Shown: positions 3,557 through 23,906, counted from the stretch's first letter. The stretch is 64,000 nucleotides of DNA from a bacterium (GCA_021373255.1 JAJFTD010000199.1:611-64610), one strand, 5' to 3'. Made by a program: numbers and translations. Notes: generated from the sequence alone by a model not told the origin.

Positions 3557-4580
3557 GGAGAGACTCGGATACAGGCTTATAGCTGATAGACTGACTGAAC
3601 TTGAAATTCCTACTCCGTCAGGCAAGATGGGCTGGTCAGCATCCACTGTTTATTCTCTCATTGGCGAAAAGGATAAGCTTCTACAATATGCTGGCTACAG
3701 CATCTGGAACAGAAGAAATTGCCAGGACGAGGACGGCGTAGTCAGACGTAGCACTTCCGAGTGGGTTGTCACCCAAGAAGCTCATCCAGCAATCATAAGT
3801 AAAGAAGAATGTGAAGACCTTATTGCATTGGCAAGACAAGTAGACCCCCAGCGCAAGGCAACAAAACCTATTTCACGTTTTGCCCTCTCAAGTGGGCCTA
3901 TGGTGTGTGCTCATTGCGGAAGCAGATATGCAGGGGCAAAGCGCCATGGTGGAGATTATTATGCTTGTGGGGCACACCTCTACAGACGTGGGGCAGGTTG
4001 TGGCAGATCCTGGTATATTCCAAAGGAACAGTTCGAGACACTTATCTTTGAGAAGCTCCTAAGCAGGCTTTCGGATGATAATGGAGATCTTTCACGCTGG
4101 ATTGATGAGGTTAATCAAGAGATAGATGCTGAGTGGGAGAAGTTTGCTGCTACCTCAGCTGAAAGAAGGAAGCAAATAGCCGATCTCGAGAAGCAGATGA
4201 GCAATCTTCTAGATCTTGCTGCATCCGGCACTCTTGTCCCTGAGATGGAGCAGAAGATAAAGGAGATATCAGATGTTATTGCCAGACTAAAGCGTCTGGA
4301 GTCGGTTCCAAGGCCAAGCAGGGTTACGGTTGAGGAGATACGGGAAAGCAGGGATACAATCGTTGCTTCCTTTAGGTCGGCTAAGCCTGGAAGACGAAAG
4401 GCAGTTCTTTCTCAGTATGTGGTTAGGATCAGCGTGGATTCCAATGCTCGTGTCGTTGAGGCCCAGTTGGTAGACCCGAGATGCCCTAAAAAGCAGCGAG
4501 GGTCGTCGGAGTTAACCGACGACCCTCATATACAGTTCAATGGTAGCCCCGAAGGGATTCGAGGGAATGGCCACATTTGA
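3447..4580 (+). pseudogene. large serine recombinase, N-terminally truncated: recombinase domain and zinc ribbon are present, the catalytic resolvase domain is missing
   Basis: Homology to the full recombinase at 22209-23906 begins near 3540 ('[16 protein letters not shown]...PTPSG...LLQYAGYSIWNRR' against 'WRLGEKAGPDVIAKRL...PTPRG...LLQYAGVGIWNRR'). The zinc ribbon 'CAHCGSRY...YYACG' is present. No Y-x-R-V-S catalytic region is found. Confidence 0.65.
4541..4561. repeat. 21-bp direct repeat TGGTAGCCCCGAAGGGATTCG, left copy, putative attL core
   Basis: It is an exact match to 23860-23880. It overlaps the last codons of the truncated recombinase. Confidence 0.7.
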
Positions 4581-4610
4581 AATCGTGTTCGGTGACAAAC
4601 GCCGATATCG

Positions 4611-4631
4611 CGTCAGGCTCGCTGCCTGACG
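4611..4631 (+). terminator. hairpin CGTCAGGC-tcgct-GCCTGACG downstream of the recombinase remnant
   Basis: An 8-bp perfect stem 30 nt after the stop codon. There is no U-tract, so its function as a terminator is uncertain. Confidence 0.2.
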
Positions 4632-4945
4632 AAGGTTGCAGGTCGCACACGGAACGGCCGCCCTACCAGAGAACTCTGTCACTCAGTGGGGAATGCTGTC
4701 GCCTGATTCTAATACACTCACGCACTTCCCCTGCGAGCGCGCCGTAGCGTTTCTTATTGAAAGATGCACTAGTCCGCGTGTTTGAAGAACTGACAAGAAC
4801 GCACGTCGTTCGACTGTCTGCGCAGGAAACTCATTCTGTAAGGTAGAACGCTACATTGTCGGGCTGAAGTTGTGCTCGGTGGAAATCAGACACCCGGTTA
4901 CCTTTCCAAGACCGGGCAGCCACACTAATGGTGGGACGCTGAGCA

Positions 4946-7711
4946 ATGCTTGAGAAGGACACTCGCCAACTACTAATAGACAGACGACTGCATCAGGCTG
5001 CATGGGGCGTGGATGACTCGTCCCGCGTCAGCCAGGAACTGCTTGTCCGCTATTCCCCGGAAGCTCTGCTCAGTAGCACCAACCACGGCTTCTGCGACTA
5101 TGTTCTCCTCGACAGGACAGGGACACCCATCGCGTTAGTAGAGGCGAAGAAGACAGCGCGGGACGCTTTGGTCGGCAAACAACAGGCCTCTGACTATGCT
5201 GATGCCATTCTGCGGGAGACTGGCCGAGAGCCATTCATTTTTATGACCAATGGCCCTGAGATCTGGTTCTGGGATCGGAGTTGGGCGGGTCCCAGACCTG
5301 TGCAGGGCTTTCTGAGCTTGGATGATCTTGAGGCCAGGCAATTCCAGAATGCAAATCGCCTATCTCTCCGCGCGACAGAAATTGACAACTCAATAGTCGA
5401 CCGGGACTACCAGATCGAAGCGATCAGGAGGGTTTACGAGAGGCTTGAGGCCAAGCGCCGGAAGTTTCTGCTTGTGCTAGCCACCGGCACCGGTAAGACT
5501 CGCATAGCAATGGCATTCATTGATGGGCTCATGAGAGCCAATTGGGTGAAGCGTGTGCTCTTCCTGGTTGACCGCCGAGCGCTGGCTGACCAGGCTATGG
5601 ACGACCTCAAGGAGCATCTGCCGTCGATTACTCGGGCTCGGATTGAAGCCGGTGAGATCGACACGGGCGCTCGGGCTTTTGTTACCACATACCCGTCTAT
5701 GATGCAGGCGATGGACAGCGTGTCAGTGGGCTTCTTTGACCTCGTGATCTGCGATGAGTCACATCGATCCATCTACAACCGCTACAAAAGACTGCTCGAT
5801 TACTTCGATGCATATCAGCTCGGGCTCACCGCCACCCCGGTAGACTTCATAGAGCGTAACACGTTCAGTCTCTTCGAATGTGACACCAGGCTTCCCACAT
5901 TCTCCTATCCGTTCGAGGATGCCGTCAACAACACGCCGCCGTATCTGACCGACTATAAAGTCTATTCCGCGCAGACGCGTTTCCAGCTCAGGGGGATTAA
6001 GGCCCACGATCTCCCGCCGGAGATTAAGCAACAGGTTGAGGCCCAAGGGATTACGCTTGATGAAATTGACTTCGAGGGCACCGACCTTGAGCGCCGAGTG
6101 ACCAACGCCGGCACTGACGAAGCTCTGGTTCAAGAGTTCATGGATATCTGCATCAAGGATTCCACCGGCACTCTGCCCGGTAAGAGCATCATCTTCGCCA
6201 TATCTCACCGGCACGCCATGAACCTCTATAAGGCCTTTGAAAGGCTTTACCCAGAGTACAGAGGGCGCTTGGTGGAAGTTATCGATTCCCACATGGAAGG
6301 CGCTGAGCGGATGCTCAAGCGCTTCAAGAACGAGAACTACCCGCGCGTGGCGATATCGGTGGACATGTTGGACACCGGCGTCGATATCCGGGAAGTGGTT
6401 AACCTCGTCTTTGCAAAGCCGGTCTACAGCCGCGTGAAGTTCTGGCAGATGATCGGGCGCGGAACCCGCCTGCTAGAACCGAGTAATATGAAACCCTGGT
6501 GCAAAGAGAAACCGCACTTCCTGATTATCGATCACTGGGATAACTTCACCTACTTCGAGATGACCCCGGAAGGGCACACACCGGACGCCAGCGAGGCCCT
6601 GCCTGTGCGCAGGTTCAGGACCCAGATCGATCTAATGGAACTGCTTCAGGGCTTGGGAGAAAGCGACAAGGCATTTCAACTCGGTCGCGAGCTGCGGGCG
6701 ACCATTGAGCTTCTGCCATCAGGTTTTGCCGAAATCAGTGCAGCCCACGCCGATATCGAGCAAGCAGCGCAACCGACATTCTGGGCTTGGCCGGGGGCGC
6801 CCGAACTGACTCACTTGCGTGCGAAGATCGCCCCTCTGTGCCGCTTCCTGATGGATGTCGACGAAGCCGCTATGGTGTTTGCCCTCAAGACCGAGCGCCT
6901 CGCTTTGGGACACCTGCAAAATGATGAGGCTGAGATAGAGCGGCAGAAAGAGCGAATCCGGGCAGACCTCAGACTTTTGCCCACAAACCTGCGAGAGGTC
7001 AAGGTCCACGAACGTGAGCTTATGGACGCAATTGCGGAGCCGTTCTGGGCCACACTCGACTATGATCGGATACTGAAGCTCCGGGACACGTTCGCGCCGC
7101 TGATGCGCTACCGGCGGGCGAATGGGCGGTCACTGATTGAGTTGAATCTGGAAGATACGGTCATTGATCGCCGGTGGATTGCTTTTGGCCCGGGCGGTGA
7201 GGGCGCATATGTGGAGAGCTACCGCGAGGAAGTGGAGGCACGGATTCGCGAACTGGCGGAATCCGACCCCACGATGCAGAAGATCAAGCGCGGCGAGCCC
7301 ATAACTGAGCAGGACCTGCACAATCTCGCTGAAACGCTGGATCAGGCTGATCTGTTCATCACCGAACAGAACTTGAAAGCAACCTATGGCGTGGATAGGG
7401 CTGGGCTGGTAGACTTCGTGCGGCACGCGCTGAATCTGGCTCAGCTAAAGACACAGGCCGATGAGATCGGAGAGGCATTCGACAGGTTCATTGCGGAACA
7501 TCAGAGCTACAGCGCCGATCAGATTCTGTTTATCAGGGTGGTGCGTTCGGTAATCGTTCACGAAGCTGAACTTGACCGACCTGCCAGGCTGACATACAAT
7601 GACTTGTTTGAGCCGCCGTTCACTCGCTTTGGCCGCAATGCAGTTGAGCGGCTCTTTACTCAGGAACAACTCGATGAGCTACTCGGATTTGTGGAACGGC
7701 TTGTTGCATAA
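4946..7711 (+). CDS. hsdR: type I restriction enzyme R subunit (HsdR)
   Basis: The N-terminal nuclease region 'DYVLLDRTGTPIALVEAKK' is present. Helicase motifs are 'LVLATGTGKT', 'VICDESHR' and 'QMIGRGTR'. Length is 921 aa. Confidence 0.85.
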   Translation: MLEKDTRQLLIDRRLHQAAWGVDDSSRVSQELLVRYSPEALLSSTNHGFCDYVLLDRTGTPIALVEAKKTARDALVGKQQASDYADAILRETGREPFIFMTNGPEIWFWDRSWAGPRPVQGFLSLDDLEARQFQNANRLSLRATEIDNSIVDRDYQIEAIRRVYERLEAKRRKFLLVLATGTGKTRIAMAFIDGLMRANWVKRVLFLVDRRALADQAMDDLKEHLPSITRARIEAGEIDTGARAFVTTYPSMMQAMDSVSVGFFDLVICDESHRSIYNRYKRLLDYFDAYQLGLTATPVDFIERNTFSLFECDTRLPTFSYPFEDAVNNTPPYLTDYKVYSAQTRFQLRGIKAHDLPPEIKQQVEAQGITLDEIDFEGTDLERRVTNAGTDEALVQEFMDICIKDSTGTLPGKSIIFAISHRHAMNLYKAFERLYPEYRGRLVEVIDSHMEGAERMLKRFKNENYPRVAISVDMLDTGVDIREVVNLVFAKPVYSRVKFWQMIGRGTRLLEPSNMKPWCKEKPHFLIIDHWDNFTYFEMTPEGHTPDASEALPVRRFRTQIDLMELLQGLGESDKAFQLGRELRATIELLPSGFAEISAAHADIEQAAQPTFWAWPGAPELTHLRAKIAPLCRFLMDVDEAAMVFALKTERLALGHLQNDEAEIERQKERIRADLRLLPTNLREVKVHERELMDAIAEPFWATLDYDRILKLRDTFAPLMRYRRANGRSLIELNLEDTVIDRRWIAFGPGGEGAYVESYREEVEARIRELAESDPTMQKIKRGEPITEQDLHNLAETLDQADLFITEQNLKATYGVDRAGLVDFVRHALNLAQLKTQADEIGEAFDRFIAEHQSYSADQILFIRVVRSVIVHEAELDRPARLTYNDLFEPPFTRFGRNAVERLFTQEQLDELLGFVERLVA

Positions 7712-7723
7712 AGAGGACTACCA

Positions 7724-9244
7724 ATGGCAAGGGAAGACTGGAAAGCAAAGATCGACCGGCTGTGGAACCTGTTCTGGTCGGGAGGCATAGCAAACCCGCT
7801 TTCGGCGATAGAACAGATATCCTATCTGATCTTCCTGAAGCGCCTCTCTGACCTCGACGACCAGGAGATAAAGGACAAGAAGCGTACGGTGTCCAGGTTC
7901 GAGGGGAACGAGCACTGCAAGTGGTCGTACATAAAAGACCTGAGTTCGGCGGATGAGGCGCTGCGAATCGTCCGTGATGAAGTCTTTCCATTCCTCAGAA
8001 GCCCTAAGGTAGGCGATGAGCTCTTCGCGCGAGCGATGCGGGATGCAGTTTTTATCATCCCTAAGCCCTCCCTTCTGCAGGGCGCGATAGACATCATCAA
8101 CGATATCGATATTACCGGGCTCGATGTGGACACTCAGGGCGAGATCTACGAGACTCTACTAGGAGAACTGAGCCAGTCCGGCAAGAACGGCCAGTTCCTG
8201 ACCAAGCGCCATATCGTGCGGACAATTGTGGAACTGGTAGACCCACAGCCTACCGAATACATCTGCGACCCAGCCGCAGGCACTGGTGGCTTCCCTATTG
8301 CTGCGTTCCAGCACATGGCTTACGAACGGACGCCGGGGGACGTGAGGATCAAGCTTCCCGATGGGACTCCACACAATCTGTTTCCGGTCTGGGACGACAA
8401 ACCATCCTGCGCGCAGTTCGTTGGCTACGACTTCGATACCACAATGGCCCGCCTCGGAATGATGAACATGATGCTCCACGGAATCGAGCATCCTTACTTC
8501 CTGTATCAGGATACTCTGTCCAAGACATTCATGCCGGAGCGCTCTAGCTTCGATATAATTCTTACGAATCCACCTTTCACGGGCAGCGTAGATATATCTG
8601 ATGTAAACGAAGACCGAATGCCGATCAAGACGCGAAAGACAGAGCTGCTATTCATTCAGCTCTGCTTGTCCCTGCTCGATATCGGCGGGCGTTGTGCGAT
8701 TATTGTGCCCGAGGGCGTCCTATTCGGCTCAAGCACTGCTCACAAGGATCTCCGCGAAAGACTTGTGAATGAAAATCAGATCGAGGCCGTGATCTCACTC
8801 CCTGCAGGATGCTTCAAGCCGTACACCGGCGTAAAGACTTCCATCCTGTATTTCACGAAGGGCGGCAGCACAGATAGAGTCTGGTTCTACGAGGTTACCG
8901 GCGATGGCTTTACTCTCGACGACAAACGAAATGATGACCCCTCGAACAACGATCTCAAGTACGTGCCCAATGCCTACCGATGCTTTGCGAAAGGTGAGTC
9001 AATTGATTGGAAGTCCGAGGAGGACAAGGCGAAAGCCGAGGCCCGGCAGTGGTGGGGGGAGTTGGAGCAGATCGTTGAAAGAGGTTACAATCTGACCGCT
9101 GGGGCTTATGCGCCAGTGATCCACGTCGCAGCGGAGCACGACAAACCGCGAGATATTATCCAACGCATAAGGAGTCTTGAGGCAGATATATCGGATAGAC
9201 TGGATCAGATTGACGTAGCCATTCTGGAGGCTACAGCCGAATGA
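7724..9244 (+). CDS. hsdM: type I RM N6-adenine DNA methyltransferase (HsdM)
   Basis: Carries the SAM motif 'CDPAAGTGGF' and the catalytic 'NPPF' motif. It lies immediately downstream of hsdR. Confidence 0.85.
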   Translation: MAREDWKAKIDRLWNLFWSGGIANPLSAIEQISYLIFLKRLSDLDDQEIKDKKRTVSRFEGNEHCKWSYIKDLSSADEALRIVRDEVFPFLRSPKVGDELFARAMRDAVFIIPKPSLLQGAIDIINDIDITGLDVDTQGEIYETLLGELSQSGKNGQFLTKRHIVRTIVELVDPQPTEYICDPAAGTGGFPIAAFQHMAYERTPGDVRIKLPDGTPHNLFPVWDDKPSCAQFVGYDFDTTMARLGMMNMMLHGIEHPYFLYQDTLSKTFMPERSSFDIILTNPPFTGSVDISDVNEDRMPIKTRKTELLFIQLCLSLLDIGGRCAIIVPEGVLFGSSTAHKDLRERLVNENQIEAVISLPAGCFKPYTGVKTSILYFTKGGSTDRVWFYEVTGDGFTLDDKRNDDPSNNDLKYVPNAYRCFAKGESIDWKSEEDKAKAEARQWWGELEQIVERGYNLTAGAYAPVIHVAAEHDKPRDIIQRIRSLEADISDRLDQIDVAILEATAE

Positions 9245-11148
9245 TCTCAAACCCTTGGGAGCAGAAGCCCGTCCGTGAAGTATGTGAGTTCATCCGTGGC
9301 TTAACATTTAGTCCGTCCGATGTAACAACATACCAGTCTGATAACAACATTGCGTGTATGCGCACGAAGAATGTTCAGAGCCGACTTGACCTATCTGACA
9401 CCATTTATGTACCAAGAGAGCTAGTTCGGGATCCAAAACAGATGCTTCGGCGTGGGGACATGCTCATATCCGTCGCTAACAGCAGTGAGCAAGTCGGTAA
9501 GTGTTGCCTCGTTGAGGAGTTGCCTTTTGAAGCTACACTTGGTGGATTCATTGCGGCCGCAAGAGCTGATGAAGCCTTGATGGCACCGCGTTTCCTCTAC
9601 TACTGGCTGAGTTCGCCGTGGATTCAGGCAAAGCTACGGCGGACGGCTCGAAAAACAACTAACATAGCGAACCTGCCATTGAGCGATGTTCAACGCTTGA
9701 TTATGCCTGTACCTCCCCTTGCGGAACAGCACAGCATCGTCGATATCCTCGATGCCGCCGATGAAGCCCGCCGCCTACGCGCTGAAGCTGATGGGGAGAT
9801 GAAGAGACTCATCCCGGCGCTGTTTGATGAGATGTTTGGAGACCCGGGTGTAACTTCGAAACAACGCGAACTAATCGAATGCGCGCATTTTGTTAGCGGA
9901 GGCACTCCTTCGAAGACCGAACCACGCTACTGGTCCGGCAATGTGCCTTGGGTATCACCCAAAGACATGAAGGTCGAGGAGCTTTGGGATGCGCAGGACC
10001 ACATCAATGCAGAAGCGGTTCAGTCTGCTGGACTCAAAGTGATTCCACAAGATAGCGTCTTGATCGTCGTGAGAGGTATGATACTGGCACATACGTTGCC
10101 GATTGGACTGAACAGAGTTCCAGTTACTATCAATCAAGATATGAAAGGCCTAATGCCTCGCTCGAATGTGAGTCCAGAGTTTCTGCAGTGGGCACTGCTT
10201 GCCCAGCGTGCGGAGATACTACGAAGCGTGCGCACCGCAGCCCACGGAACTAAGCGGTTGGAAACTGATTGGCTCACCAGTATCCGTTTGCACATTCCCC
10301 CGCGCCCGCTCCAGCGCCAGTTTGCTGCTCATGTCACAGAAATCCGCGCCATCCAAGACCAGCAGGCAAAGAGCCGTGAGGAACTGGACGCGCTATTCGA
10401 GTCTCTATTGCATCGAGCACTTGCGGGAGAGCTGACCGGAGGGACGGCCGAGACACAGACGTGGGCCGGGGCAGATATGCACGGACGTGACTTGACGAAT
10501 TTCACTCTCACAGGCAAAACCATGCGAAGAGCCAACTTGAAAGGCAGCAGATTGTGCGGAGCAATGCTTGCTTCAGCCGATCTTACCGAAGCAGTTCTGG
10601 AACACGCCGATCTTTCTGGTGCAAACTTGGCGGATGCCCAGTTGGGCTGGACAAAACTTAGGGGCGTGAACTTGCAAGATGCTAATCTTGAGAATGCCAG
10701 TCTAATCGGTGCCGACCTGCGGGATTCCAGCTTGGTTGGATGTAAGCTTTCTGGCGCTAATCTGACGTTGGCAAGGTTGGATAACCTTGATCTTTCCATG
10801 CTTGACCTAACGAATGTCAATCTGCGCGGTTCCAGTCGCGACGGATGCAAGATAGGCGATCTACACTTGGCAAGCGCTAAGCGTCGCCCTATTTGGTGGA
10901 GACTTTCAGATAGCCAGCGTTCAGTATGGAGCGCTATCATGCTTATCAAAGGGATATTCGAGGTGAAAGATGTGCTGGACGAACTTCGCTATTATCCTGG
11001 AGACTGGTCCAATAGCGAGCATATTCGTGGCACGCTCGATCTACTGGTGAGCCTGGCTGTACTGATAAAGGTGGACCGACGCGAAGCGTTTGGCTGGCGT
11101 AGATTCGATCCGGACACAGACCAGGAGGTAGTCATTGAGGATATATAA
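9241..11148 (+). CDS. hsdS: type I RM specificity subunit (HsdS) fused to a C-terminal pentapeptide-repeat domain
   Basis: Two target-recognition domains are separated by the conserved 'LPPLAEQHSIVDILD...' region and followed by 'LPPRPLQRQFAAHV...'. Then come 17 consecutive A(D/N)LXX pentapeptides (about 10573-10830) and roughly 105 aa of unknown sequence. The start overlaps the hsdM stop (ATGA). Confidence 0.75.
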   Translation: MISNPWEQKPVREVCEFIRGLTFSPSDVTTYQSDNNIACMRTKNVQSRLDLSDTIYVPRELVRDPKQMLRRGDMLISVANSSEQVGKCCLVEELPFEATLGGFIAAARADEALMAPRFLYYWLSSPWIQAKLRRTARKTTNIANLPLSDVQRLIMPVPPLAEQHSIVDILDAADEARRLRAEADGEMKRLIPALFDEMFGDPGVTSKQRELIECAHFVSGGTPSKTEPRYWSGNVPWVSPKDMKVEELWDAQDHINAEAVQSAGLKVIPQDSVLIVVRGMILAHTLPIGLNRVPVTINQDMKGLMPRSNVSPEFLQWALLAQRAEILRSVRTAAHGTKRLETDWLTSIRLHIPPRPLQRQFAAHVTEIRAIQDQQAKSREELDALFESLLHRALAGELTGGTAETQTWAGADMHGRDLTNFTLTGKTMRRANLKGSRLCGAMLASADLTEAVLEHADLSGANLADAQLGWTKLRGVNLQDANLENASLIGADLRDSSLVGCKLSGANLTLARLDNLDLSMLDLTNVNLRGSSRDGCKIGDLHLASAKRRPIWWRLSDSQRSVWSAIMLIKGIFEVKDVLDELRYYPGDWSNSEHIRGTLDLLVSLAVLIKVDRREAFGWRRFDPDTDQEVVIEDI

Positions 11149-14699: not shown

Positions 14700-15578
14700 A
14701 TGGGCCAGTTGAACTACCGCAAACACGAGCCGTTATCGCTGAAGAATCACCCAGATTTCGACGAGAAACGGCTCCAGGGCGTAATCGAAGAAGACCCCTC
14801 CATACTTGGACTCGGCGATCTGGAGGTCAGGGACGTAGAGCGAATCCAGCCCAAGGCGGGGCGGCTCGATCTGCTGCTCCGAGATCCCGAGACGGGGAAG
14901 CGCTACGAGGTCGAGATCATGCTCGGCGCGACTGACGAAAGCCACATCATCAGAACCATTGAATACTGGGACATCGAGCGAAAGCGTTACCCCCAGTATG
15001 ATCACTGCGCTGTGATCGTGGCCGAATGTGTCAATTCCAGATTCCTCAACGTGATCGGTCTCTTCAACAGTGCCATTCCAGTCATCGCAATACAACTCAA
15101 TGCCCTGAAGCTCGGTGATGACATAGTTCTCAGTTTCACGAAGGTCATTGACGAGGCCGCCTTGGGACTGGACGACGAAGACGAAGGCTCTGGCGGTAAG
15201 AGTGTCGACCGAGCTTACTGGGAGACAAAGGGCTCGAAGAAGTCGGTGGCGATTGTCGATGAATGCCTGGAGATCCTTCGAGAAGTTGATCCCCAATTGG
15301 GGCTAAATTACAACAAGAACTACATTGGCTTGGCCAATAGGCACGGCGTTAACAACTTTGTAGTGTTCCGCGCCAAGAAGAACTTCATCCGCACCGAGGC
15401 TAGGGTGCCCGACCAAGAGTCCTGGAAGATTCGGCTTGAGGAGGCTGGTATTGTGGTGCTGCCTGGCGTCACGATTCGAGAGAGGCTGCATTTCCGCTTG
15501 ACCAGCAAAGACATCAAAGCGAATCGCGAAATGCTGAAGGAGCTCTTCCAGACGGCGTACGCCAAAGATCAGGAATAG
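14700..15578 (+). CDS. paralogous nuclease-like protein ('GRLDLLLRD...YEVEI') with a similar C-terminal domain
   Basis: Its architecture parallels the preceding gene. An RBS 'AAGGAG' is present. Confidence 0.4.
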   Translation: MGQLNYRKHEPLSLKNHPDFDEKRLQGVIEEDPSILGLGDLEVRDVERIQPKAGRLDLLLRDPETGKRYEVEIMLGATDESHIIRTIEYWDIERKRYPQYDHCAVIVAECVNSRFLNVIGLFNSAIPVIAIQLNALKLGDDIVLSFTKVIDEAALGLDDEDEGSGGKSVDRAYWETKGSKKSVAIVDECLEILREVDPQLGLNYNKNYIGLANRHGVNNFVVFRAKKNFIRTEARVPDQESWKIRLEEAGIVVLPGVTIRERLHFRLTSKDIKANREMLKELFQTAYAKDQE

Positions 15579-15644
15579 CATTGCAGCGCATGCACATCGA
15601 CTCTGCGGCCAAGCGAACTGTGTCTGAGCGCTCGCTCACGAGAA

Positions 15645-15977
15645 GTGAAACAGAAGCAAGTCATGAACGTCGACCGACCGACATTGACCTTACACGAGGC
15701 GATGGTACAGATACTCAGCAAGTGCGCCGACCAGACGGCTGAACATGTATACCTGGCTTCGGAGATAAGGCGGCAGACTCTCTACTGGCAGAATGACGGC
15801 AGCGCGGCCCCTTCTGGCCAGATTGCCGTAAGAGCCAGGAATTACCCGGACCTGTTCGAGAAAATTCTGGCTGATCAAGTTAGAGGCCAGAGGGCAAAGA
15901 TAAGGCTCAGGTATGGGTCTGACAGCACTGGCACCGACGTGTGGACCCGTGATCATTGCACAAGAGAACTGGAGTGA
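15645..15977 (+). CDS. hypothetical small protein
   Basis: ORF only. No motif recognised. Confidence 0.3.
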   Translation: MKQKQVMNVDRPTLTLHEAMVQILSKCADQTAEHVYLASEIRRQTLYWQNDGSAAPSGQIAVRARNYPDLFEKILADQVRGQRAKIRLRYGSDSTGTDVWTRDHCTRELE

Positions 15978-16009
15978 ACTCAAGTAGCCGCGCTCATTGA
16001 GGCGGGTGA

Positions 16010-17773
16010 ATGACAACTATGGAAACCCCGGACCTTGGTGAACAAATGGACTATGCCAAGACAATAGGAGAACTGGGCGATGTAGTCATGCTTGCGGCCC
16101 ACTCAATGCATGCTAAGCTCGACATCAGCGTTATTCCGCCAATGCGTCGCGTAGCTTGGCCTGCTTGGGATGGCTTTCTGCCCTGGCGATATCCTGACGA
16201 AGCTTATGAAAGCATGGCTGTGTTAGTACGAACAGCGGGCCGGTCGGATGACTGGCTCAGGATGGGGTTCACCGGTCAATCGGGAGCGTCCTCCTACGCG
16301 GCGGAAGAGCACCTGCGCACGTGGAACACCCGTCGCAGCAAGGACCCGGACAAGGCAGCATTTGCCGACGATGTGTGCCGCAACCGATGGCCGCTTGTGG
16401 GTATTGACGAGCTGGCTAACCGTGTGGACGGGCTCGCACGGTATCTTGAAAAGAATGCACCATCGCTGCAGCTTACTGGGTTTCCAGAAACGAGATACCA
16501 GGACTCATTCTGGTTTCATGCCGGATTTGCCACAGTCTATCCAACAAGACTCCCCGTGTACGTTCTGCATCATGCAAGCCCCGCAGACACCTACACGTAC
16601 TTGTGGCCCCGCCAGCCGGCTGCCAGTCTTGACGTCGGTGAGTTGCGGACTCTATTACCTACCGCATTTGGTGAGGGTCCCGGGTTCTGGTATGGTTCGG
16701 GCTTTCGCGCTTACACCTGTGACTGTGAGTTGGTGCAGTGTGTTCCGTACCCTCAGTCGGCTCTATTGGAGTGTTTTACGAGCGCAGATGAGTTGTTGAT
16801 CCCGCGTCTGCGGACGAAGGTCATTGAAATCGGTCGTGCGATTCTTGCGGAACTGTCTAGTTCTCTAACCTCAAGAAACCCGCAGAGCCTTAGACATCGA
16901 TGCGTATCGATACTGACCGAAAGCCTTGATGCGAATGAGTTCGACAGTCTGGCGCTGGCGGATTATGGGATGACCCACAGCCTGGGGCTTGGTTACTCCG
17001 CACTGGGGTGCTACAATCTGGTTCACGGGGGTTTCCTCAGCAACCTCATCACGCTGATTGGCCATTGCGAGGAAGAACTTGCGGTCGGCCGCCTCTGGCA
17101 GACTCGACAGGCTATTGCCGGCGCTTTCTCCAGTGCCATTGCATTCGATGGTTTCGCTCCCGTGCGGTTCTGGTATGACGAAATTGATGGAACAGAGGAT
17201 CAGATCGCTGTCGACCGGGCATATGAAGTGTTCCACTCTCGCGCAAGCCAAGAGAGGGCATTCTGGGACTCATTCCGCCGTTGGATGATTGGGGTTCGGG
17301 ATGAGTTCTACACAGAGATATTTGGGGAGCGAGTCAGACGCCGCAACCAGCCCGAGTTTGAGGCCTATATGCGACAGATGGCAAGACTGGCAGCGAGTTC
17401 CGTAGAACTGACAGGCCAGCTTCCACAGAGCCGGGTCTTTCTGGAAGGTCAAGCTGATACTTGCACTTCTGTCCAGCCCACCATTAACCAGCCTGACCAA
17501 GGCGGCTCGAGGCACCAGTTCCGCCACTGGGACAACTATCGCCAAGTCGAGCGAGATGGCGTCACATATTCCCTTTCCCCCGCGCAGGCTCAGGCCGTCA
17601 GAGTACTTCTCGAAGCACGCGAGGCAGGAGAACAAACCTTATCGGCAGCCACGCTTCTTTCCCGTATGGGGGAACTTGCTCCACTAAGAATTAGCGAGAT
17701 ATTCAGAAGCAATGATCCTCGTAAAGCATTGGTCAAACGGATCGCCAAAGACTCCTATGAGCTGAATATCTGA
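16010..17773 (+). CDS. hypothetical protein of 587 aa, function unknown
   Basis: A long ORF in the same orientation as the element cargo. No recognisable motif. Confidence 0.5.
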   Translation: MTTMETPDLGEQMDYAKTIGELGDVVMLAAHSMHAKLDISVIPPMRRVAWPAWDGFLPWRYPDEAYESMAVLVRTAGRSDDWLRMGFTGQSGASSYAAEEHLRTWNTRRSKDPDKAAFADDVCRNRWPLVGIDELANRVDGLARYLEKNAPSLQLTGFPETRYQDSFWFHAGFATVYPTRLPVYVLHHASPADTYTYLWPRQPAASLDVGELRTLLPTAFGEGPGFWYGSGFRAYTCDCELVQCVPYPQSALLECFTSADELLIPRLRTKVIEIGRAILAELSSSLTSRNPQSLRHRCVSILTESLDANEFDSLALADYGMTHSLGLGYSALGCYNLVHGGFLSNLITLIGHCEEELAVGRLWQTRQAIAGAFSSAIAFDGFAPVRFWYDEIDGTEDQIAVDRAYEVFHSRASQERAFWDSFRRWMIGVRDEFYTEIFGERVRRRNQPEFEAYMRQMARLAASSVELTGQLPQSRVFLEGQADTCTSVQPTINQPDQGGSRHQFRHWDNYRQVERDGVTYSLSPAQAQAVRVLLEAREAGEQTLSAATLLSRMGELAPLRISEIFRSNDPRKALVKRIAKDSYELNI

Positions 17774-17902
17774 TCTCCGAAGCAGTTACGCCTCAATTAC
17801 GCTCCAATAACGCCCGACCTACGCCTAATGACTCCTGCTTTGCCGCTATGCTGAAGATGTGCATGGCCCGGCAAGAGTCCACGCATACAATCTCCTCCTG
17901 AA

Positions 17903-18277
17903 TTGGGAGGATTAGAAGCCCTGAGAGAGCCTTGCCGGGCCTGCCTCTCGGGGCTTTTCTACTTCTCTGTAAGGCGATTAACGATGTGTGGTAAGCATCA
18001 GGAAATCAAAGTGATCATGGAGTTGGCGGATTCCGCAATCCCGTCGGATGCGGACACTGTCGCTGACGCGCTCGCCCTCGACTTGCAGTCGGACGTCGTG
18101 ACGCGCTGGAGCGACGAAGTCCGGGAGGCCATCGCTTGCTCCAAGCGCATTGCAAATCCACTGAGCCCGGTGCAGGCCAACTTGGCTGCGCAGAGAAGAG
18201 ACGAGATTCAAGCCAGGATCACCTTACTAGAGAGGGAGTTGCTGGAACTAAGGAGCGTAGACTATGAGCATAAATAG
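17903..18277 (+). CDS. hypothetical small protein
   Basis: The ORF ends by overlapping the start of the primase gene. Confidence 0.3.
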   Translation: MGGLEALREPCRACLSGLFYFSVRRLTMCGKHQEIKVIMELADSAIPSDADTVADALALDLQSDVVTRWSDEVREAIACSKRIANPLSPVQANLAAQRRDEIQARITLLERELLELRSVDYEHK

Positions 18278-20993
18278 AGAAGTGGTTACGGCAGTCGAAG
18301 CGGCGCTCACGGCTATCACTGAGTCTGGACAGGTAGTCGAACTGCGAGTCCTCGACTACATGCGGCCAGGCTCAAGCTACCCCTGCACGATGTCGGGCTA
18401 CTTTGATGACTACCGGGCAATGGCCGAAGAGGCCGCTAAGCTCACGCCGCACGCTTCGGGAGTTTACTTCACCCCGAACCCCGTGAAGCCTGAACTGCTT
18501 GCCCGCGTCTGTAACAAGACGCGGGCTATGGGAAAGGGTGACAGCACAACTTCTGACAAGGATGTCATCCGGCGAAGGTGGTTCCTTATCGACTGTGACG
18601 CTGCACGAGTAAGCGGCATATCCGCAAGCGATGAAGAACACGCGGCGGCCATCAGCAGAGCTGAGACTATCCGGACGGCCTTGAGCGGGGAAGGATGGCC
18701 GGAACCGATACTTGCGGATTCGGGGAATGGCGGACACCTGATGTATCGCGTTGACATTCCGACAGATGATAAAGGGCTTGTGAAAGCGTGTCTTGAGGCT
18801 TTGGCGCAGCGTTTCAACAGCGACGGGGTACACGTGGACACCGCTGTGTTCAATCCCGCCCGAATCTGGAAGTTGCCCGGCACGCTTGCCCGCAAAGGCG
18901 AAGACATGCCCGGCAGACCCCATAGGTTAGCTAAGCTGTTGAACGTGCCCGAACCACTGGAAGTGGTTGCCGCTGGGCTGCTTCAAACACTTGCTGAGAC
19001 AGCCAATGCCGAAGTGCCTGCCATCGAGCATCCGATTGCCGGCGGGTTTGATCTTGTGTCTTGGATATCAAGCCATCTGGGCGCAGCTTCGCATAAGCGA
19101 ACAGCAGAGGGCGAAGTATGGACAATCGAGGTGTGCCCATTCAATCCAGAGCACCGCCGGGGTGAGGCGTTCATCATCCGCCGCGTCGATGGCACGATCG
19201 GCGCGGGCTGCAAGCACAACTCCTGCGAATGGGGGTGGCGAGAACTGCGGGAGAGATTCGAGCCAGGCTGCTATGATCGAGCACCGGAGATTTCCGCACG
19301 CACCGAAACGGAGTTCCGAAGACCAGACTTCCCTCAAAGCGACTTGGACAACGCGGAGTACTTCGTCACGCGGCACGGACGTAACGTGCGGTTCAACGTC
19401 GATACCGCGCAGTGGCACGTCTGGAATGAAGGGCTGTGGGACGTCGACGGCAAGGGCAACGTGAAGCGACTTGTGGCTGAGTCCGTGCGGTCGATGCACG
19501 CTCTTCTGCCCAACATTACCAACTTCAAGCAACGCGAGGCGCTCTTCCGCCACATCCATACATCGGAAAGCCGTTCCCGGCTTGAGGCTATTGAGAGCTT
19601 GGCACAGAGCAGGGATGGCATTCCTATCCAGAGCGCCGAGCTTAACTGTGACCCGATGCTTCTGAACGTCAGGAACGGCACAATCGACCTGAGAACAGGC
19701 GAGCTGAAACAGCATCAACGTGGTGACTTGATCTCGAAGCTCTGTCCTGTTGCGTATGATCGGGAAGCACAGTGTCCGAGGTGGATGCAGTTTCTTGAAG
19801 AAGTGTTTCAGGGCAACGCTGATCTGATCGGGTTTGCGAAGCGTTCAGTAGGCAACTGGCTTACGGGTGACTGCCGTGAGGAAACCGCTTGGGTGCTCTA
19901 TGGCAAGGCTCAGACCGGCAAGAGCAAGTTCCTCGCAGTGATACGCGCGATCCTTGGCGACTACGCGGCGACAGCGGCCATGACGACATTTATGGGATCG
20001 GGGGAACGCAATACGTATGATCTTGCCGACCTTGCAGGAAGGAGGTTCGTGACGGCATCAGAGGCGAGTGACAGCGAAACGTTCAACGAGCCGCTGCTAA
20101 AAGCGCTCACAGGCAGAGACGCTATAAAGTGCAGACCGATCTACGGCCGCCCGATGGAGTATCTGCCACAATTCAAGATCGTGTTCGCGACAAACGAGCT
20201 TCCACGCATCAAGTCTCAGGGCCTGGACATGCGGCGGCGGCTGAAGGTGATACCGTTCCGCCAGCGTTTCTATGACCCGGATGAAGGCAGACAGCCCGTC
20301 AAAGATGACCGATTGCTCGAAAAGCTCACCAAGGAACTGCCCGGGGTACTGCAGTGGGCGGTAGAAGGGTGCCTTGAATGGCAGCGTGAGGGCTTGGGCG
20401 TGCCTGCCTGCGTCAAAGCAGAGATCAAGTCCATATTCGAGCAGCAAGACCCACTTGCCGAGTTTCTTGAGGAGTGCTGCGTTATCGAGCCAGCCGCACT
20501 GGTAAGGACCTCTGACCTCTACCAAGCACTAGGAGAGTGGAGCGAATCGAAGGGCATTGAGCCGCCTTTCAAGAACACGCAGACGCTCAGCCGAAGCCTC
20601 ACCAAGCGCGACGAAATCGACTCGATCCGCGACTGGACGGGCCAGAGGGTGTTTCGAGGAATTGGTCTCTTGTCGCAATTGACGCAACATGGCAATTCCT
20701 GCAAACCCTCTCACGAGGGGGATTCTTGCGAGGGGGTCTGCGCAAACAGCCCAGATGCGTCAATTGCGTCAGACGACGAGAATACCGATGCACTTGTCTA
20801 CGCTTGCGGAGCGTGCAAAGCACAGGTTTGGCTCACCGACTACAAGCCCCAAGTCTACACTTACTCATGCGAGTCGTGTGGTCATGATGGTATAGTGACT
20901 CACTGTGACTACCGGTTTTGGCTAGGTCATCGAAGTGCTGATACGGCAACAGCAGGTGTACAGCAACAAAGCGGGGAATTGCGCGGGAGGTAA
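18264..20993 (+). CDS. bifunctional primase-polymerase fused to a D5/P4-type SF3 helicase, with a C-terminal zinc ribbon
   Basis: The Prim-Pol-like motif is 'SGNGGHLMYRVDIP'. Walker A of the SF3 helicase is 'GKAQTGKSKF'. The C-terminal zinc ribbon is 'CGACKAQVW...CESCGHDG'. Confidence 0.75.
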   Translation: MSINREVVTAVEAALTAITESGQVVELRVLDYMRPGSSYPCTMSGYFDDYRAMAEEAAKLTPHASGVYFTPNPVKPELLARVCNKTRAMGKGDSTTSDKDVIRRRWFLIDCDAARVSGISASDEEHAAAISRAETIRTALSGEGWPEPILADSGNGGHLMYRVDIPTDDKGLVKACLEALAQRFNSDGVHVDTAVFNPARIWKLPGTLARKGEDMPGRPHRLAKLLNVPEPLEVVAAGLLQTLAETANAEVPAIEHPIAGGFDLVSWISSHLGAASHKRTAEGEVWTIEVCPFNPEHRRGEAFIIRRVDGTIGAGCKHNSCEWGWRELRERFEPGCYDRAPEISARTETEFRRPDFPQSDLDNAEYFVTRHGRNVRFNVDTAQWHVWNEGLWDVDGKGNVKRLVAESVRSMHALLPNITNFKQREALFRHIHTSESRSRLEAIESLAQSRDGIPIQSAELNCDPMLLNVRNGTIDLRTGELKQHQRGDLISKLCPVAYDREAQCPRWMQFLEEVFQGNADLIGFAKRSVGNWLTGDCREETAWVLYGKAQTGKSKFLAVIRAILGDYAATAAMTTFMGSGERNTYDLADLAGRRFVTASEASDSETFNEPLLKALTGRDAIKCRPIYGRPMEYLPQFKIVFATNELPRIKSQGLDMRRRLKVIPFRQRFYDPDEGRQPVKDDRLLEKLTKELPGVLQWAVEGCLEWQREGLGVPACVKAEIKSIFEQQDPLAEFLEECCVIEPAALVRTSDLYQALGEWSESKGIEPPFKNTQTLSRSLTKRDEIDSIRDWTGQRVFRGIGLLSQLTQHGNSCKPSHEGDSCEGVCANSPDASIASDDENTDALVYACGACKAQVWLTDYKPQVYTYSCESCGHDGIVTHCDYRFWLGHRSADTATAGVQQQSGELRGR

Positions 20994-21002
20994 CACAACG
21001 CG

Positions 21003-21341
21003 ATGGGCTGGGAAGCTAGACAACGCGGCGGCCGATACTACACACGGTCCAAGAAAGTCGGCGGGCGGGTAGTGCGGGAATACGTGGGAACCGGCATGGC
21101 GGCAGAACTTGCAGCCGAACTTGACACGCTTGAACGGCAGGAACGCGAGCGTGCGCATGCGGCTGTTAAGTCCGAGCGAGACACCGACAAGACACTGGAA
21201 GCGGCCCTACACGATTACTACAAGATCGTTGATGCAATAACGGAGGAGGCCCTGCTTGCAGCAGGGTACCACAAGCACAAAGGACAATGGAGGCGCAGAC
21301 GTGGCAAGAAAGAAGACGATAACCGACCTGGCAAAGCTTGA
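21003..21341 (+). CDS. hypothetical small basic protein
   Basis: ORF only. Confidence 0.3.
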   Translation: MGWEARQRGGRYYTRSKKVGGRVVREYVGTGMAAELAAELDTLERQERERAHAAVKSERDTDKTLEAALHDYYKIVDAITEEALLAAGYHKHKGQWRRRRGKKEDDNRPGKA

Positions 21342-21387
21342 TGATCTTCATCTGTTGAGAGAGGCAGACGGAGGTAGCCAGGAAGCC

Positions 21388-21864
21388 ATGACGTTGTTGC
21401 AGCAGCATTATGACGCCAATCCGGGCGCCTTTCCATGCGCCGACATGCCAAAGACTGTGGCTGGAGCACGCATGGTACAAGCGGGGCTTCCCGCCGGGAC
21501 TAGACTCGCGCTGCAACACACGAGTGACAGACTCCTCGAAGATGTAGCAGGAAAGAACCCCACCCCGCTTGAAAAACTACTCGCCGAACGCATAGTAGCT
21601 TGCTGGCTTGACGTCCAAATCCTTGAGGTACGCTGGGCATCTGCTCAAGAAGTAACGTGCCAAAAAAGTGAATACTTCTCTCGCATGCTTGACCGTGCTC
21701 ATAGCCGCTATTTATCAGCCATAAAGGTTCTGGCACAGGTGCGAAGACTCAACGCGCCGTTGATACAACTCAACGTAGCCGACAAGCAGATCAACGTGCT
21801 CTCTGGCACAGATATGGGCAATGAAGTGGCCGACGCTCAATGTGCGAGCGGGGACGGCGCATAA
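21388..21864 (+). CDS. hypothetical protein
   Basis: The ORF has an RBS 'GGAGG' before the ATG at 21388. The longer ORF call from 21256 overlaps the upstream gene. Confidence 0.35.
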   Translation: MTLLQQHYDANPGAFPCADMPKTVAGARMVQAGLPAGTRLALQHTSDRLLEDVAGKNPTPLEKLLAERIVACWLDVQILEVRWASAQEVTCQKSEYFSRMLDRAHSRYLSAIKVLAQVRRLNAPLIQLNVADKQINVLSGTDMGNEVADAQCASGDGA

Positions 21865-21999
21865 ACTGAACTCCATTGTGCTTCGGATGAATTCTTCAAG
21901 AATCTCCTCCAGATTAGTTGACGCGTTGTCAACTATGGAGTATATTGACATGTAGGCAAGGGTCGGATGAGAGGCCTGCTGTTTGGAACGGAGGAGACC

Positions 22000-22206
22000 A
22001 TGACTGTCACACTGTCAGAAGCTGCAGAAGCGAAGCATATCAGCCGCAATGCTGTCTGGAAGGCGATAAGGCGCGGTGAGCTCACCGCCCGTAAGTCATC
22101 GGGAGGTGTGTGGCTGGTCGAAGAGGACCAGCAGTGGCAGGACTATAGACCCCGCAACTACGTGGGCAAGCGCGGGGAATCGGCATCCCGCGTTGAGGAG
22201 GAGTAA
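22000..22206 (+). CDS. HTH_17/excisionase-family DNA-binding protein, a likely recombination directionality factor
   Basis: The sequence 'MTVTLSEAAEAKHISRNAVWKAIRRGEL' is a helix-turn-helix. It sits directly upstream of the recombinase. An RBS 'GGAGGA' is present. Confidence 0.55.
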   Translation: MTVTLSEAAEAKHISRNAVWKAIRRGELTARKSSGGVWLVEEDQQWQDYRPRNYVGKRGESASRVEEE

Positions 22207-22208
22207 GC

Positions 22209-23906
22209 ATGGCACTACTTGATCTTGTCAACAACTCTGATGTCAGGTCGGCGGAGACAAAGGCACAGCAGAAAGCCCTCGCTTACATCCGCGTTTCGCA
22301 CGAAGATTCGGCTGACAGGGGAGCCAGTCTTGAGACCCAGCGGCGCGACATCGAGTGCTACGCCGCACGTGAAGGTATTGAGGTTGTCGAATGGTTCGAG
22401 GAGCCCGGCAAGTCAGCATTCAAAGACTCAGCAAAACGCCCGGAGTTCCAGCGAGTCATCAGAAATGCCAAGGAGTGTTCCTCTATCTCAATTATCCTCG
22501 TCTGGAAATCCGATAGGTTCAGCCGCGACCGGTATCTGGCTAGTGCGGTAAAGGGCGAACTCCAGAAAGCAGGGGTCCGAGTGCTGTCCGTTACCGAGCC
22601 TTACGATTCGAGAACCACGTCTGGTATCGTGATGGAATCCGTAACCGACGCAATCAACCAAGTGCGGTCTATGGAGATTGGCTTGGTCACGCACCGAAGC
22701 CTTCTGGTAAATTGCGAAATGCGCGACCCGGCAACTGGCTGGGCATACAAGAACGGTGGAATGGCGCAGTTTGGATACCGCAACCTGCGCGTATATGCGG
22801 ACGTAGATCGGAAGTATCAACGTATCAGTCATTGCGTCTGGGAGCTTGACGATGAGATAGTTGCTGGCAAGCCCATACACGAGTGGGCTCGCGTAGTCTT
22901 GCTTGATTGGCGGCTCGGAGAAAAGGCCGGGCCGGACGTCATCGCCAAGCGACTAACACAGGCGGGCGTGCCCACACCGCGCGGTCGAAAGGCCTGGTCT
23001 GACAGCAGCGTCAACTACCTTCTGATGCCGGATAAGCTTCTTCAGTATGCCGGCGTTGGAATATGGAACAGGCGAGACTTTCGCACTGGCGGCAAGTCGT
23101 GGAAGGACAAAGAAGACTGGAAGGTCGTGGAGAATGCCCATCCCGCAATTATCACGATGGAGCAAGCGGAAGCGATACACGCCATCCGTGAGCAGCGCAC
23201 ATGCCGGCCTGGCAAGCGGGGCAAGAAGCCCTCACCATTCGTTCTATCGGGTGGTCTGTTGGTCTGCTCGCATTGCGGTGCGAACTACGCCGGAAGAAAC
23301 AAGCACTCCGTGGACTACTACGTATGCGGTGCTCAAATCTACCGAGACGGAGCCGACTGCGACACTCCCTGGTATATCAGACGTGAAGATGCTGAAAATG
23401 CCGCCTTTGATTGCATACAGAAGGTGCTATCATCCAGCTCAAAGCACACCCTAAGAGCGGTGAACGCATATAACAAGTGGGTGGACTCTCAACTGTCCCT
23501 CTACGGTTCGACCGAAAACGCCAGGCGCACTGAGATCAAGCGTCTGCGGTCGGAGGTCGACAACCTTATGCAATCACTTGCCGCAGGCATAGACCCCAGC
23601 ACAATCAGTGCGGCCATCAATGAGCGCGCGCAGCACATTCAGAAGCTTGAAGCTCTTGGCGACGTGGAACTACCTCAGAAGATCACGACGAAGGAACTGG
23701 ATGCTCAAGCAGCAGAAGTGCGACAGATCGCGGAGAACTGCCCGCCTGATAAGAAGAGGCTGATTCTCAGGAAGTATATTGACTCAATGCGGGTAGTAGC
23801 AGAAGAGCGGACCATCAAAGTGATGATCCGCCCTCTACCCACGATTTGTGGTCATTGGTTGGTAGCCCCGAAGGGATTCGTTGGCCTGACCAAACGTTCA
23901 GATTGA
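22209..23906 (+). CDS. large serine recombinase (integrase), full length
   Basis: Catalytic motif 'YIRVSHEDS...R', followed by a recombinase domain and the zinc ribbon 'CSHCGANY...YYVCG'. The last 15 codons overlap the right copy of the direct repeat. Confidence 0.85.
   Translation: MALLDLVNNSDVRSAETKAQQKALAYIRVSHEDSADRGASLETQRRDIECYAAREGIEVVEWFEEPGKSAFKDSAKRPEFQRVIRNAKECSSISIILVWKSDRFSRDRYLASAVKGELQKAGVRVLSVTEPYDSRTTSGIVMESVTDAINQVRSMEIGLVTHRSLLVNCEMRDPATGWAYKNGGMAQFGYRNLRVYADVDRKYQRISHCVWELDDEIVAGKPIHEWARVVLLDWRLGEKAGPDVIAKRLTQAGVPTPRGRKAWSDSSVNYLLMPDKLLQYAGVGIWNRRDFRTGGKSWKDKEDWKVVENAHPAIITMEQAEAIHAIREQRTCRPGKRGKKPSPFVLSGGLLVCSHCGANYAGRNKHSVDYYVCGAQIYRDGADCDTPWYIRREDAENAAFDCIQKVLSSSSKHTLRAVNAYNKWVDSQLSLYGSTENARRTEIKRLRSEVDNLMQSLAAGIDPSTISAAINERAQHIQKLEALGDVELPQKITTKELDAQAAEVRQIAENCPPDKKRLILRKYIDSMRVVAEERTIKVMIRPLPTICGHWLVAPKGFVGLTKRSD
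23860..23880. repeat. 21-bp direct repeat TGGTAGCCCCGAAGGGATTCG, right copy, putative attR core
   Basis: It is an exact match to 4541-4561. Here it is translated in a different frame ('VAPKGFV' against 'GSPEGIR'). Confidence 0.7.

Follow-up and report, generated by a model that had tools for sequence, protein, structure and literature searches.

Large serine integrases are workhorses of genome engineering, and they are widely used because short sites suffice and no host factors are needed. By the usual view, most of the sites that they use in nature lie in protein-coding genes, and use of tRNA genes is rarely seen. In staphylococcal cassette chromosome (SCC) cassettes, large serine recombinases (CcrAB or CcrC, with rlmH as the target) and short direct repeats around each unit go together with tandem or composite arrays at one site, and the tandem tRNA-gene islands of tyrosine integrases show repeated tRNA fragments. 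Mageeney et al., using TIGER, found 14 of 297 serine-integrase islands in tRNA or tmRNA genes, with experimental proof said to be needed (PMC7192596), and Group 1 proviruses of Thermotogota, such as MPV1, have a serine recombinase and adjoin tRNA-Glu (bioRxiv 10.1101/2020.11.07.368316). A large serine recombinase is used by 27 of 937 tycheposons. The mycobacteriophages BPs and Brujita have the phage attachment site (attP) within their repressor gene, and the outcome depends on degradation tags at the C-termini of Rep and Int (PMC3694055). The DNA analysed here, referred to as the window, is a stretch of 64,000 nucleotides (GCA_021373255.1 JAJFTD010000199.1:611-64610) from an Armatimonadota metagenome-assembled genome (MAG). 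We read its positions 4562-23880 as one 19.3-kb integrative element, E2, that is mobilized by a serine integrase, directed to tRNA-Glu and placed in the middle of a tandem stack; we give this reading a probability of about 80%.

Exactly two copies of the 21-mer TGGTAGCCCCGAAGGGATTCG are present in the window, one at 4541-4561 and one at 23860-23880, both on the plus strand. No third copy was found in the window when up to three mismatches were allowed, and 100 shuffles gave a chance expectation of 0 matches. The two junctions comprise the following features, in which O is the 21-bp core, P and P′ are the arms on its two sides, and E1 and E3 are the neighbours of E2.

3537-4580, plus strand: remnant of E1, an N-terminally truncated large serine recombinase with the Recombinase and Zn_ribbon_recom domains and without Resolvase.
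4497-4528, minus strand: terminator-like hairpin, a 13-bp stem followed by a T-run (terminator scan), inside the last codons of the truncated recombinase gene.
4541-4561, plus strand: left core, in the junction order E1 P arm, O, E2 P′ arm.
4562-4631, plus strand: predicted P′ arm of E2, with an open reading frame (ORF) at 4540-4629 (stop at 4629) that holds the codons of the native tail EGMATFEIVFGDKRRYRVRLAA.
4566-4575: outer inverted-repeat arm at the left end of E2, AATGGCCACA, inside the E2 P′ arm.
22209-23906, plus strand: intact large serine recombinase of 565 amino acids; PF00239 Resolvase, PF07508 Recombinase, PF13408 Zn_ribbon_recom; PHROG integrase, 1.5e-71.
23847-23856, plus strand: outer inverted-repeat arm in the E2 P arm, TGTGGTCATT, inside the conserved codons for ...ICGH...
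23860-23880, plus strand: right core, in the junction order E2 P arm, O, E3 P′ arm.
23881-23950, plus strand: sequence read as the left end (P′ arm) of E3, 94-99% identical behind the same core at four other loci.

The left core makes up the final codons of ORF 3447-4580, which ends in ...NGSPEGIRGNGHI with the repeat translated as NGSPEGIR. The right core supplies the final codons of the recombinase gene 22209-23906, which ends in ...LVAPKGFVGLTKRSD with the repeat translated as LVAPKGF. Because the reading frames across the two cores differ and the truncated and intact recombinases are just 35% identical (over 310 amino acids), the identity of the cores is that of a DNA site and not of conserved coding sequence. 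An earlier note on this DNA had described perfect 21-bp direct repeats that match at the DNA level, the left one in an N-terminally truncated serine recombinase gene and the right one in an intact gene; the window-wide exact search, the frames and the domain content of the two proteins all agree with that description.

The core is the reverse complement of positions 56-76 of tRNA-Glu(CUC) and covers part of the T-loop, the 3′ strands of the T-stem and acceptor stem, the discriminator base and CCA. Exact matches to it were sought in 185,579 species genomes, and at least 118 loci came back; among the matches listed, 117 of 118 run on as a tRNA-Glu gene, in Actinomycetota and Armatimonadota, and ARAGORN identifies the Armatimonadota version of the tRNA that bears the 21-mer as tRNA-Glu(ctc). 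When the window was compared with the full tRNA-Glu (blastn-short), only the two cores matched, the left over positions 56-77 and the right over 57-77, with the left copy agreeing with the tRNA one base further, at 4562. Neither a tRNA gene nor any Rfam family was found inside the window, and no intact tRNA stands at the integrase-proximal end of the element, either in the window or in the 8.5 kb past its right end. The repeats at the ends are thus identical to the 3′ part of a tRNA, which is the mark of an island that targets a tRNA gene. As judged from these matches, the true insertion target of the 19.3-kb element is the tail of a tRNA-Glu gene.

The same kind of ending is seen among homologues of the intact recombinase. 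Thirty-nine of its 84 full-length homologues terminate in tRNA-antisense peptides (for example ...VAGAGFEPATFGL, ...VAPGGVEPPPRP and ...AAPRGVEPLSRP), and distant relatives drawn from a library of 1.8 billion proteins likewise show such tails. The closest relative, P0001 (92% identical), has the C-terminus ...LVAPKGFEPSISWLRTMHPGPLDDGA; its tail and that of P0025 are exact frame-1 antisense translations of Armatimonadota tRNA-Glu(CUC), the junction of P0001 with the tRNA being read from the protein tail alone. The tail of P0020 follows the frame-2 antisense translation of the same tRNA for 19 residues, with near-identical versions in P0022 and P0023, and frame 2, the one read by the P0020 lineage, is also used by the window's truncated gene. 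At three loci, L002 (on a contig of 5.37 Mb), L003 and L004, a real tRNA-Glu(UUC) gene overlaps the recombinase gene at its 3′ end; the flank examined for L003 covers 10 kb, and the attL of that locus falls beyond it.

A 'native' tail, of which ...RRFRAA and ...GFWGQGAA are examples, is found instead in some of the remaining homologues. Two such loci, L126 and L127, are phage genomes in which the native-tailed recombinase gene is followed by lysis and tail genes, and this is the unintegrated (attP) form. The tRNA-like core of L127 lies between the arms of a perfect 16-bp inverted repeat, and L126 and L001 follow the same design. The family thus has an attP within an ORF and two kinds of C-terminus, native in L001, L126 and L127 and tRNA-antisense in the integrated relatives. 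Taken together, the tails and these sites indicate that the attP core of the whole recombinase family sits in the 3′ end of its own gene and that the family probably integrates into tRNA genes. The earlier note was right to see the repeats as attachment-site cores bounding a discrete element in a tandem arrangement, but it placed the target in the integrase genes themselves, and this part does not survive the identification of the core as the 3′ end of tRNA-Glu. Its idea that each insertion recreates a target in the manner of SCC is likewise not supported, as the recombinase family targets tRNA genes and holds the attP core in its own 3′ end.

The two ends of E2 fit together as the halves of one predicted attP when 23880 is joined to 4562. 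Across the join the recombinase ORF runs on from ...LVAPKGF into EGMATFEIVFGDKRRYRVRLAA and a stop codon, yielding the predicted attP-form tail ...GMATFEIVFGDKRRYRVRLAA, in place of the tail VGLTKRSD that the gene has in the window. The rebuilt tail is homologous to those of P0017 in L001 (...GMTTFEIRFKSKHRYSIRVV) and of P0027. The E2 and L001 tails align over 21 codons, of which 8 agree exactly and 3 differ synonymously, two CGA/AGG arginine swaps among them; the synonymous codons indicate that part of the conservation of the tail acts at the protein level.

The same join (23811-23880 followed by 4562 onward) rebuilds the inverted repeat TGTGGTCATT / AATGGCCACA with 9 of 10 positions paired. 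Each arm is 14 bp from a centre that falls between core positions 11 and 12, at the junction of the acceptor stem and T-stem (tRNA 66/65), and this centre is identical to the base in L001 (10/10), L127 (10/10) and L126 (9/10). When window segments were paired at random on the two sides of the core, 0.35% of trials reached 9/10. The real left junction scores 5/10, the real right junction 7/10, and the hypothetical empty site P1-O-P3′, in which the truncated recombinase would lead directly into 23881, 4/10. Imperfect inverted half-sites, for which the earlier note had proposed an alignment, appear when the two ends of the element are joined. In addition, a stretch of 15 nt at the E2 P arm, CGATTTGTGGTCATT, is also present in the attP of L001. 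The predicted attP is about 48 bp long, with the tRNA sequence as its inner 21 bp and element-specific outer arms, and it spans the last codons of the integrase gene. On sequence grounds, the rebuilt site has the architecture expected of a serine-integrase attP. We observed that in L001 (3650-3790) the arms TGTGGTCATT / AATGACCACA are 24-26 bp from the centre, versus 14 bp in E2, an outward shift of roughly one helical turn per side.

The neighbour on the left is what remains of an older element, E1. The surviving part of its recombinase gene is the 3′ two-thirds, and the product shows 100% identity with P0090, a protein from an Armatimonadota MAG that NCBI lists under recombinase family protein. 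The 30 nt that lead up to the left core can be assigned to the P arm of E1, because they are homologous to the 3′ end of P0032, an intact relative in L131 whose protein is 55% identical. The hairpin at 4497-4528 stands 13 nt downstream of the tRNA 3′-end fragment, on the tRNA strand, and is absent from the homologous stretch of the intact relative in L131; we infer that it would terminate a tRNA-Glu rebuilt beside E1. We also considered the left junction as a true attL, with the hairpin as the native downstream flank of the tRNA, and rejected this because of the homology of the 30 nt before the core to the recombinase 3′ end in L131. Next to the place where the old recombinase is cut short, near 3530, is ORF 2615-3556, which lacks a Pfam match and reads like a heavy-metal P-type ATPase whose metal-binding N-terminal portion has been fused to its C-terminal portion by a large internal deletion. 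This arrangement suggests that one deletion took most of the older element plus part of the chromosome.

The sequence to the right of E2 is found in other company. Positions 23881-23945 recur at 94-99% identity directly behind the core in L064, from a related MAG, and in L123, L124 and L125, from metagenomes. To the left of the core, none of these four loci resembles the window: a terminator-like hairpin without a recombinase stands there in L123 and L125, ordinary chromosomal genes in L124 and a third sequence in L064. The 23881 flank forms the partial dyad TGACCAAACG (7/10) with the E2 P arm. From these occurrences we take the flank to be where a third element, E3, has its left (P′) end; E3 would have inserted at tRNA-Glu sites in several genomes. 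The order in the window is then E1 remnant, core, E2, core, E3, with arms of three different elements around two identical cores. As both junctions are P-O-P′ hybrids, neither core is joined to the body of a tRNA. The truncated recombinase and the 23881 flank were also tried as one former attP, given the open frame and its 'RLSW' tail, and this was rejected, since the dyad is 4/10 and the flank occurs elsewhere without a recombinase.

A third, degenerate core at 27864-27884 (TGGTAGATACGAG...) was tried and rejected, as 9 of its 21 bases match and it is unlike the tRNA end. Just beyond the first AbiEi/AbiEii pair, 27924-27965 is preceded by TGGTAGATACGAG and is 81% identical to 23909-23950, the P′-like stretch to the right of the core. 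The homology of L064 to the window stops at 27875. The region 27864-27965 may be a further decayed element boundary.

Between the cores, E2 carries the following genes in addition to the recombinase, together with two small ORFs.

4946-7711, plus strand: hsdR, type I restriction-modification (RM); PADLOC REase_I, 1e-157.
7724-9244, plus strand: hsdM, type I RM; PADLOC MTase_I, 2e-142.
9241-11148, plus strand: hsdS, type I RM; PADLOC Specificity_I, 1e-53.
11135-12724, plus strand: PtuA-like ABC/AAA ATPase; PADLOC PtuA, 1.5e-32; Pfam AAA_21/AAA_15.
12705-13769, plus strand: HNH nuclease, partner of the PtuA-like ATPase; PADLOC PDC-M01B, 4e-13, and PtuB, 2.5e-7; Pfam HNH.
13724-14671, plus strand: PDC-S18 candidate defence protein (DUF5655); PADLOC PDC-S18, 9e-148; Pfam DUF5655.
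14700-17773, plus strand: three genes of 292, 110 and 587 amino acids, called in the NCBI assembly.
18264-20993, plus strand: D5-type primase-helicase of 909 amino acids; Pfam D5_N, DUF5906 and Pox_D5; PHROG DNA primase, 1e-108.
21967-22206, plus strand: HTH_17 or excisionase-like gene of 79 amino acids, candidate recombination directionality factor (RDF); PHROG RDF, 3e-6, and excisionase, 2e-4.

The RM genes (4946-11148) are supported by Pfam too. HsdS has a C-terminal extension of about 230 amino acids made of pentapeptide repeats, which is unusual for this protein. For the HNH partner the PDC-M01B model gives a better score than PtuB does, and the pair is Septu-like. The three genes at 14700-17773 have no match in Pfam, PADLOC or PHROG. 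The 79-aa helix-turn-helix (HTH) gene, which in the NCBI contig is a weak match to HTH_17, ends 3 nt before the start codon of the recombinase, and a gene of the HTH_17 family occupies the same position upstream of the recombinase at the P0001 locus. An RVS motif is visible in the translation of the intact recombinase, whose last codons cross the right core into the next element; it is the sole integrase of E2, and is a serine recombinase and not a tyrosine integrase. Virion, packaging or conjugation genes were not detected in E2, and no PHROG structural or packaging match was found among its unassigned genes. Pfam, PADLOC and PHROG together support what had been claimed of the gene content, namely an integrase, an RDF-like HTH gene, a primase-helicase and purely defensive cargo.

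These observations are consistent with the following course of events. Since the element carries tRNA positions 56-76 in its attP, the tRNA would be rebuilt on integration. Strand exchange would take place at the dyad centre (tRNA 66/65), with GA as the probable crossover dinucleotide. Integration would cut off the integrase tail of about 22 codons (...RYRVRLAA), to be replaced by whatever sequence lies beyond the core, usually antisense tRNA, as in the 92% identical relative P0001. In the window, E2 would instead have come to stand at a tRNA-Glu-derived site between the recombinase remnant of E1 on its left and the left end of E3 on its right, the stack having presumably arisen from successive integrations of different elements aimed at the same core. 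A resident junction keeps the 21-bp core, and to an unrelated integrase the P arm of the resident could appear as a variant outer flank. The two recombinase genes end in the repeat, then, because they come from separate elements that share one tRNA target, and not through insertion of one element into the recombinase gene of the other as such. Excision would use the integrase together with the neighbouring HTH/RDF-like protein, and replication of the circle would fall to the primase-helicase.

The exchange of tails also invites a further idea, which we consider doubtful. The free form would make a short-lived integrase with a conserved tail of about 22 residues that ends, like an ssrA tag, in ...LAA or ...AA, and integration would swap in a tRNA-antisense tail and so change the stability or directionality of the enzyme, acting as an integration-sensing switch; through such a clade, serine integrases would also have in tRNA genes a ready-made and near-universal set of landing sites. 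An Ala-Ala end is found in 11 native tails of the close family and in the predicted tail of E2 (...RLAA), and the resemblance to an ssrA-like tag is suggestive. An argument against the tag is that the Ala-Ala end is not enriched in distant relatives (3 of 74).

Several points weigh against the reading of E2 as a tRNA-directed element in a stack. To our knowledge, serine integrases are not expected to recombine attP with a site that resembles attL or attR, and the stacking route given above is one that we infer. Symmetry is the sole basis for GA as the probable crossover dinucleotide, and the HTH gene is a candidate RDF by weak HTH matches; RDFs of serine integrases are diverse, and their function is not readable from sequence. 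An empty site, a circular junction and a second left arm of E2 were not found in the genome, metagenome and viral collections searched. Two expectations raised with the first description of the element therefore found no support: no circle was seen in these collections, and, instead of an empty site in which the truncated-recombinase flank leads into 23881, the 23881 flank follows the 21-mer in three other contexts, each with a different sequence at the left. Metagenomes searched with the core plus its right flank gave three loci, none with the truncated recombinase at the left, and viral contigs searched for the 21-mer, for integrase relatives and for an intact attP pattern gave nothing. The 8.5 kb beyond the right end of the window, which hold a DUF3427 helicase-nuclease gene and AddAB-like genes, contain no tRNA and no recombinase. 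The stack is therefore not seen to end at a tRNA, as there is none in the window or in these 8.5 kb. Finally, rightward from about 27 kb the window is less securely continuous, as it depends there on a contig overlap of about 2 kb with 37 differences.

Among the alternatives, the one that survives best is that the arms are relics and E2 is now fixed in a chromosomal defence island, with hybrid junctions that cannot be used for excision. No B-type arm or tRNA body is present at either junction, neighbour E1 is clearly decayed, and the failure to find a circular form or an empty site in the collections searched would fit as well. We nevertheless regard a fossil as possible and no better than that, because the integrase is full length with its three domains, the RDF-like gene and the primase-helicase are intact, and the repeats are perfect over 21 bp. 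Moreover, the lineage was recently active, since the 92% identical relative adjoins tRNA-Glu in another metagenome with the same upstream gene order.

It is improbable, in our judgement, that the site is intrinsic to the 3′ ends of integrase genes, so that E2 entered the integrase gene of a resident and made a fresh target in doing so, as in SCC. This proposal would account for the tandem arrangement and for the position of both cores in the final codons of serine-recombinase genes, and the frame of the truncated gene indeed stays open into 23881, with the tail ...GIRWPDQTFRLSWRNRVFERELIEA. However, the core is the 3′ end of tRNA-Glu and the relatives of the recombinase stand beside real tRNA genes. 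The P arm of the truncated gene and the 23881 flank give no dyad (4/10), the flank occurs behind the core in L064, L123, L124 and L125 with no recombinase at the left, and the P1-O-P3′ site was not found in the metagenome search.

That the short repeat led an assembler into a chimeric join around the 19.3 kb is very unlikely. Both junctions lie on one contig, JBDKRM010000019.1, of an independent NCBI assembly of the same Armatimonadota MAG, which differs from the window by one mismatch in 1-14580 and by none from 12209 to 27062, and a 21-bp repeat is below the usual k-mer size of assembly. In favour of an artefact, the window passes through overlapping contigs near 25.1-27.4 kb, and a contig of a related MAG (L013, 6957 bases) appears to stop at the tRNA-Glu 3′ end (match at 6936-6956). 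JBDKRM010000019.1 ends at window position 27367, and its 37 differences from the window all fall within 27063-27337; by coordinate arithmetic JBDKRM010000055.1 would begin near 25100, and the window is a path through the overlap with a variant end. Chance, coding homology or gene conversion between paralogous recombinase genes can practically be set aside, for although the genes are homologous and share an upstream stretch of 42 nt at 79% identity (family D3), no chance match is expected, the proteins are 35% identical and read the repeat in different frames, and the repeat is the end of a tRNA.

With E2 read as a tRNA-directed element, its nearest counterparts are the serine-integrase prophages and islands at tRNA genes, which likewise have the recombinase at the end of the element and among which tRNA-Glu is a recurrent target. 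Reports of these rest on adjacency, whereas in E2 the attachment site is resolved into a 21-bp core, a predicted dyad at tRNA 65/66 and an attP inside the integrase gene. Proviruses of the MPV1 type, which we compare by description, are phages, and E2 is a replicative defence island. Tyrosine-integrase islands at tRNA genes (Islander/Williams type; PMC4383910) share with E2 the restoration of the tRNA 3′ end, repeats that are a tRNA fragment and a tRNA-proximal integrase gene. E2 differs from them in its large serine recombinase, in a short symmetric attP without arm sites, and in the lack of an intact tRNA at either junction.

The tycheposons of Prochlorococcus also target tRNA genes through a site-specific integrase, many have a primase/helicase module, and some bring ecologically relevant cargo. 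The likeness is one of gene content: E2 has a tRNA-directed integrase, a primase-helicase and cargo without virion or conjugation genes, in an Armatimonadota host and with purely defensive cargo. As in SCC, tandem units are each bounded by the same short direct repeat, but the target is a tRNA and not rlmH (which is not present), a single recombinase gene spans attP and there is a replication module; the likeness between the E2 recombinase and Ccr is assumed at the level of the superfamily only. Integration-dependent immunity of mycobacteriophages resembles the E2 family in that attP lies within an ORF and the C-terminus changes on integration. There, the repressor is split and the integrase is a tyrosine integrase, whereas in the E2 family the serine integrase has its own tail swapped, with a putative degron role for ...RLAA. 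Within the literature searched, tRNA-targeting serine integrases are known in outline, and the base-level architecture of the attachment site appears to be new, as does a family-wide attP inside the integrase's own 3′ end with integration swapping the C-terminal tail.

Dozens of independent integrase genes that run into antisense tRNA, together with the symmetric attP of unintegrated relatives, are strong sequence-level evidence for a tRNA-directed clade, and for one of its members attP and attB would now be defined to the base. Because tRNA-Glu is conserved across phyla, such integrases could offer landing sites in a broad range of hosts. A stack of unrelated elements at one tRNA core can, moreover, build a multi-system defence island in the little-studied Armatimonadota; here it includes RM, the Septu-like pair, PDC-S18 and AbiE and, provided that continuity holds rightward of about 27 kb, it also reaches a Hachiman-like helicase and ZacABC.

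Further genes lie to the right of E2. Two adjacent AbiEii/AbiEi toxin-antitoxin pairs occupy 26216-27756 and 28069-29840 on the minus strand. At 37149-39393, also on the minus strand, a B12-binding radical SAM protein is encoded beside a ParB-CE-like protein and glycosyltransferase-like genes, and no PADLOC model matched the four ORFs scanned in 35803-40791. The region 42931-47212 encodes a HamB-like DEAD-box helicase of 1149 amino acids (PADLOC HamB, 7e-37) with an upstream partner of 318 amino acids that has no family match; the two may be a Hachiman-like pair. A complete ZacA-ZacB-ZacC set (PADLOC 4e-132, 2e-179 and 0) is present on the minus strand at 57483-63835, and a DUF3427 PLD-helicase gene follows just past the end of the window (L128). 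Between the HamB-like and Zac genes, the plus-strand region 48876-57220 has a G+C content of 57-59%, compared with some 50% in its surroundings. The block runs from a methyltransferase-like ORF (putatively Hen1-like) to a polynucleotide kinase-phosphatase-ligase (AAA_33, Metallophos, PNKP_ligase), with an RlaP-domain (PF10127) gene between these ends, and from its domains it looks like an RNA-repair cassette within the defence island.

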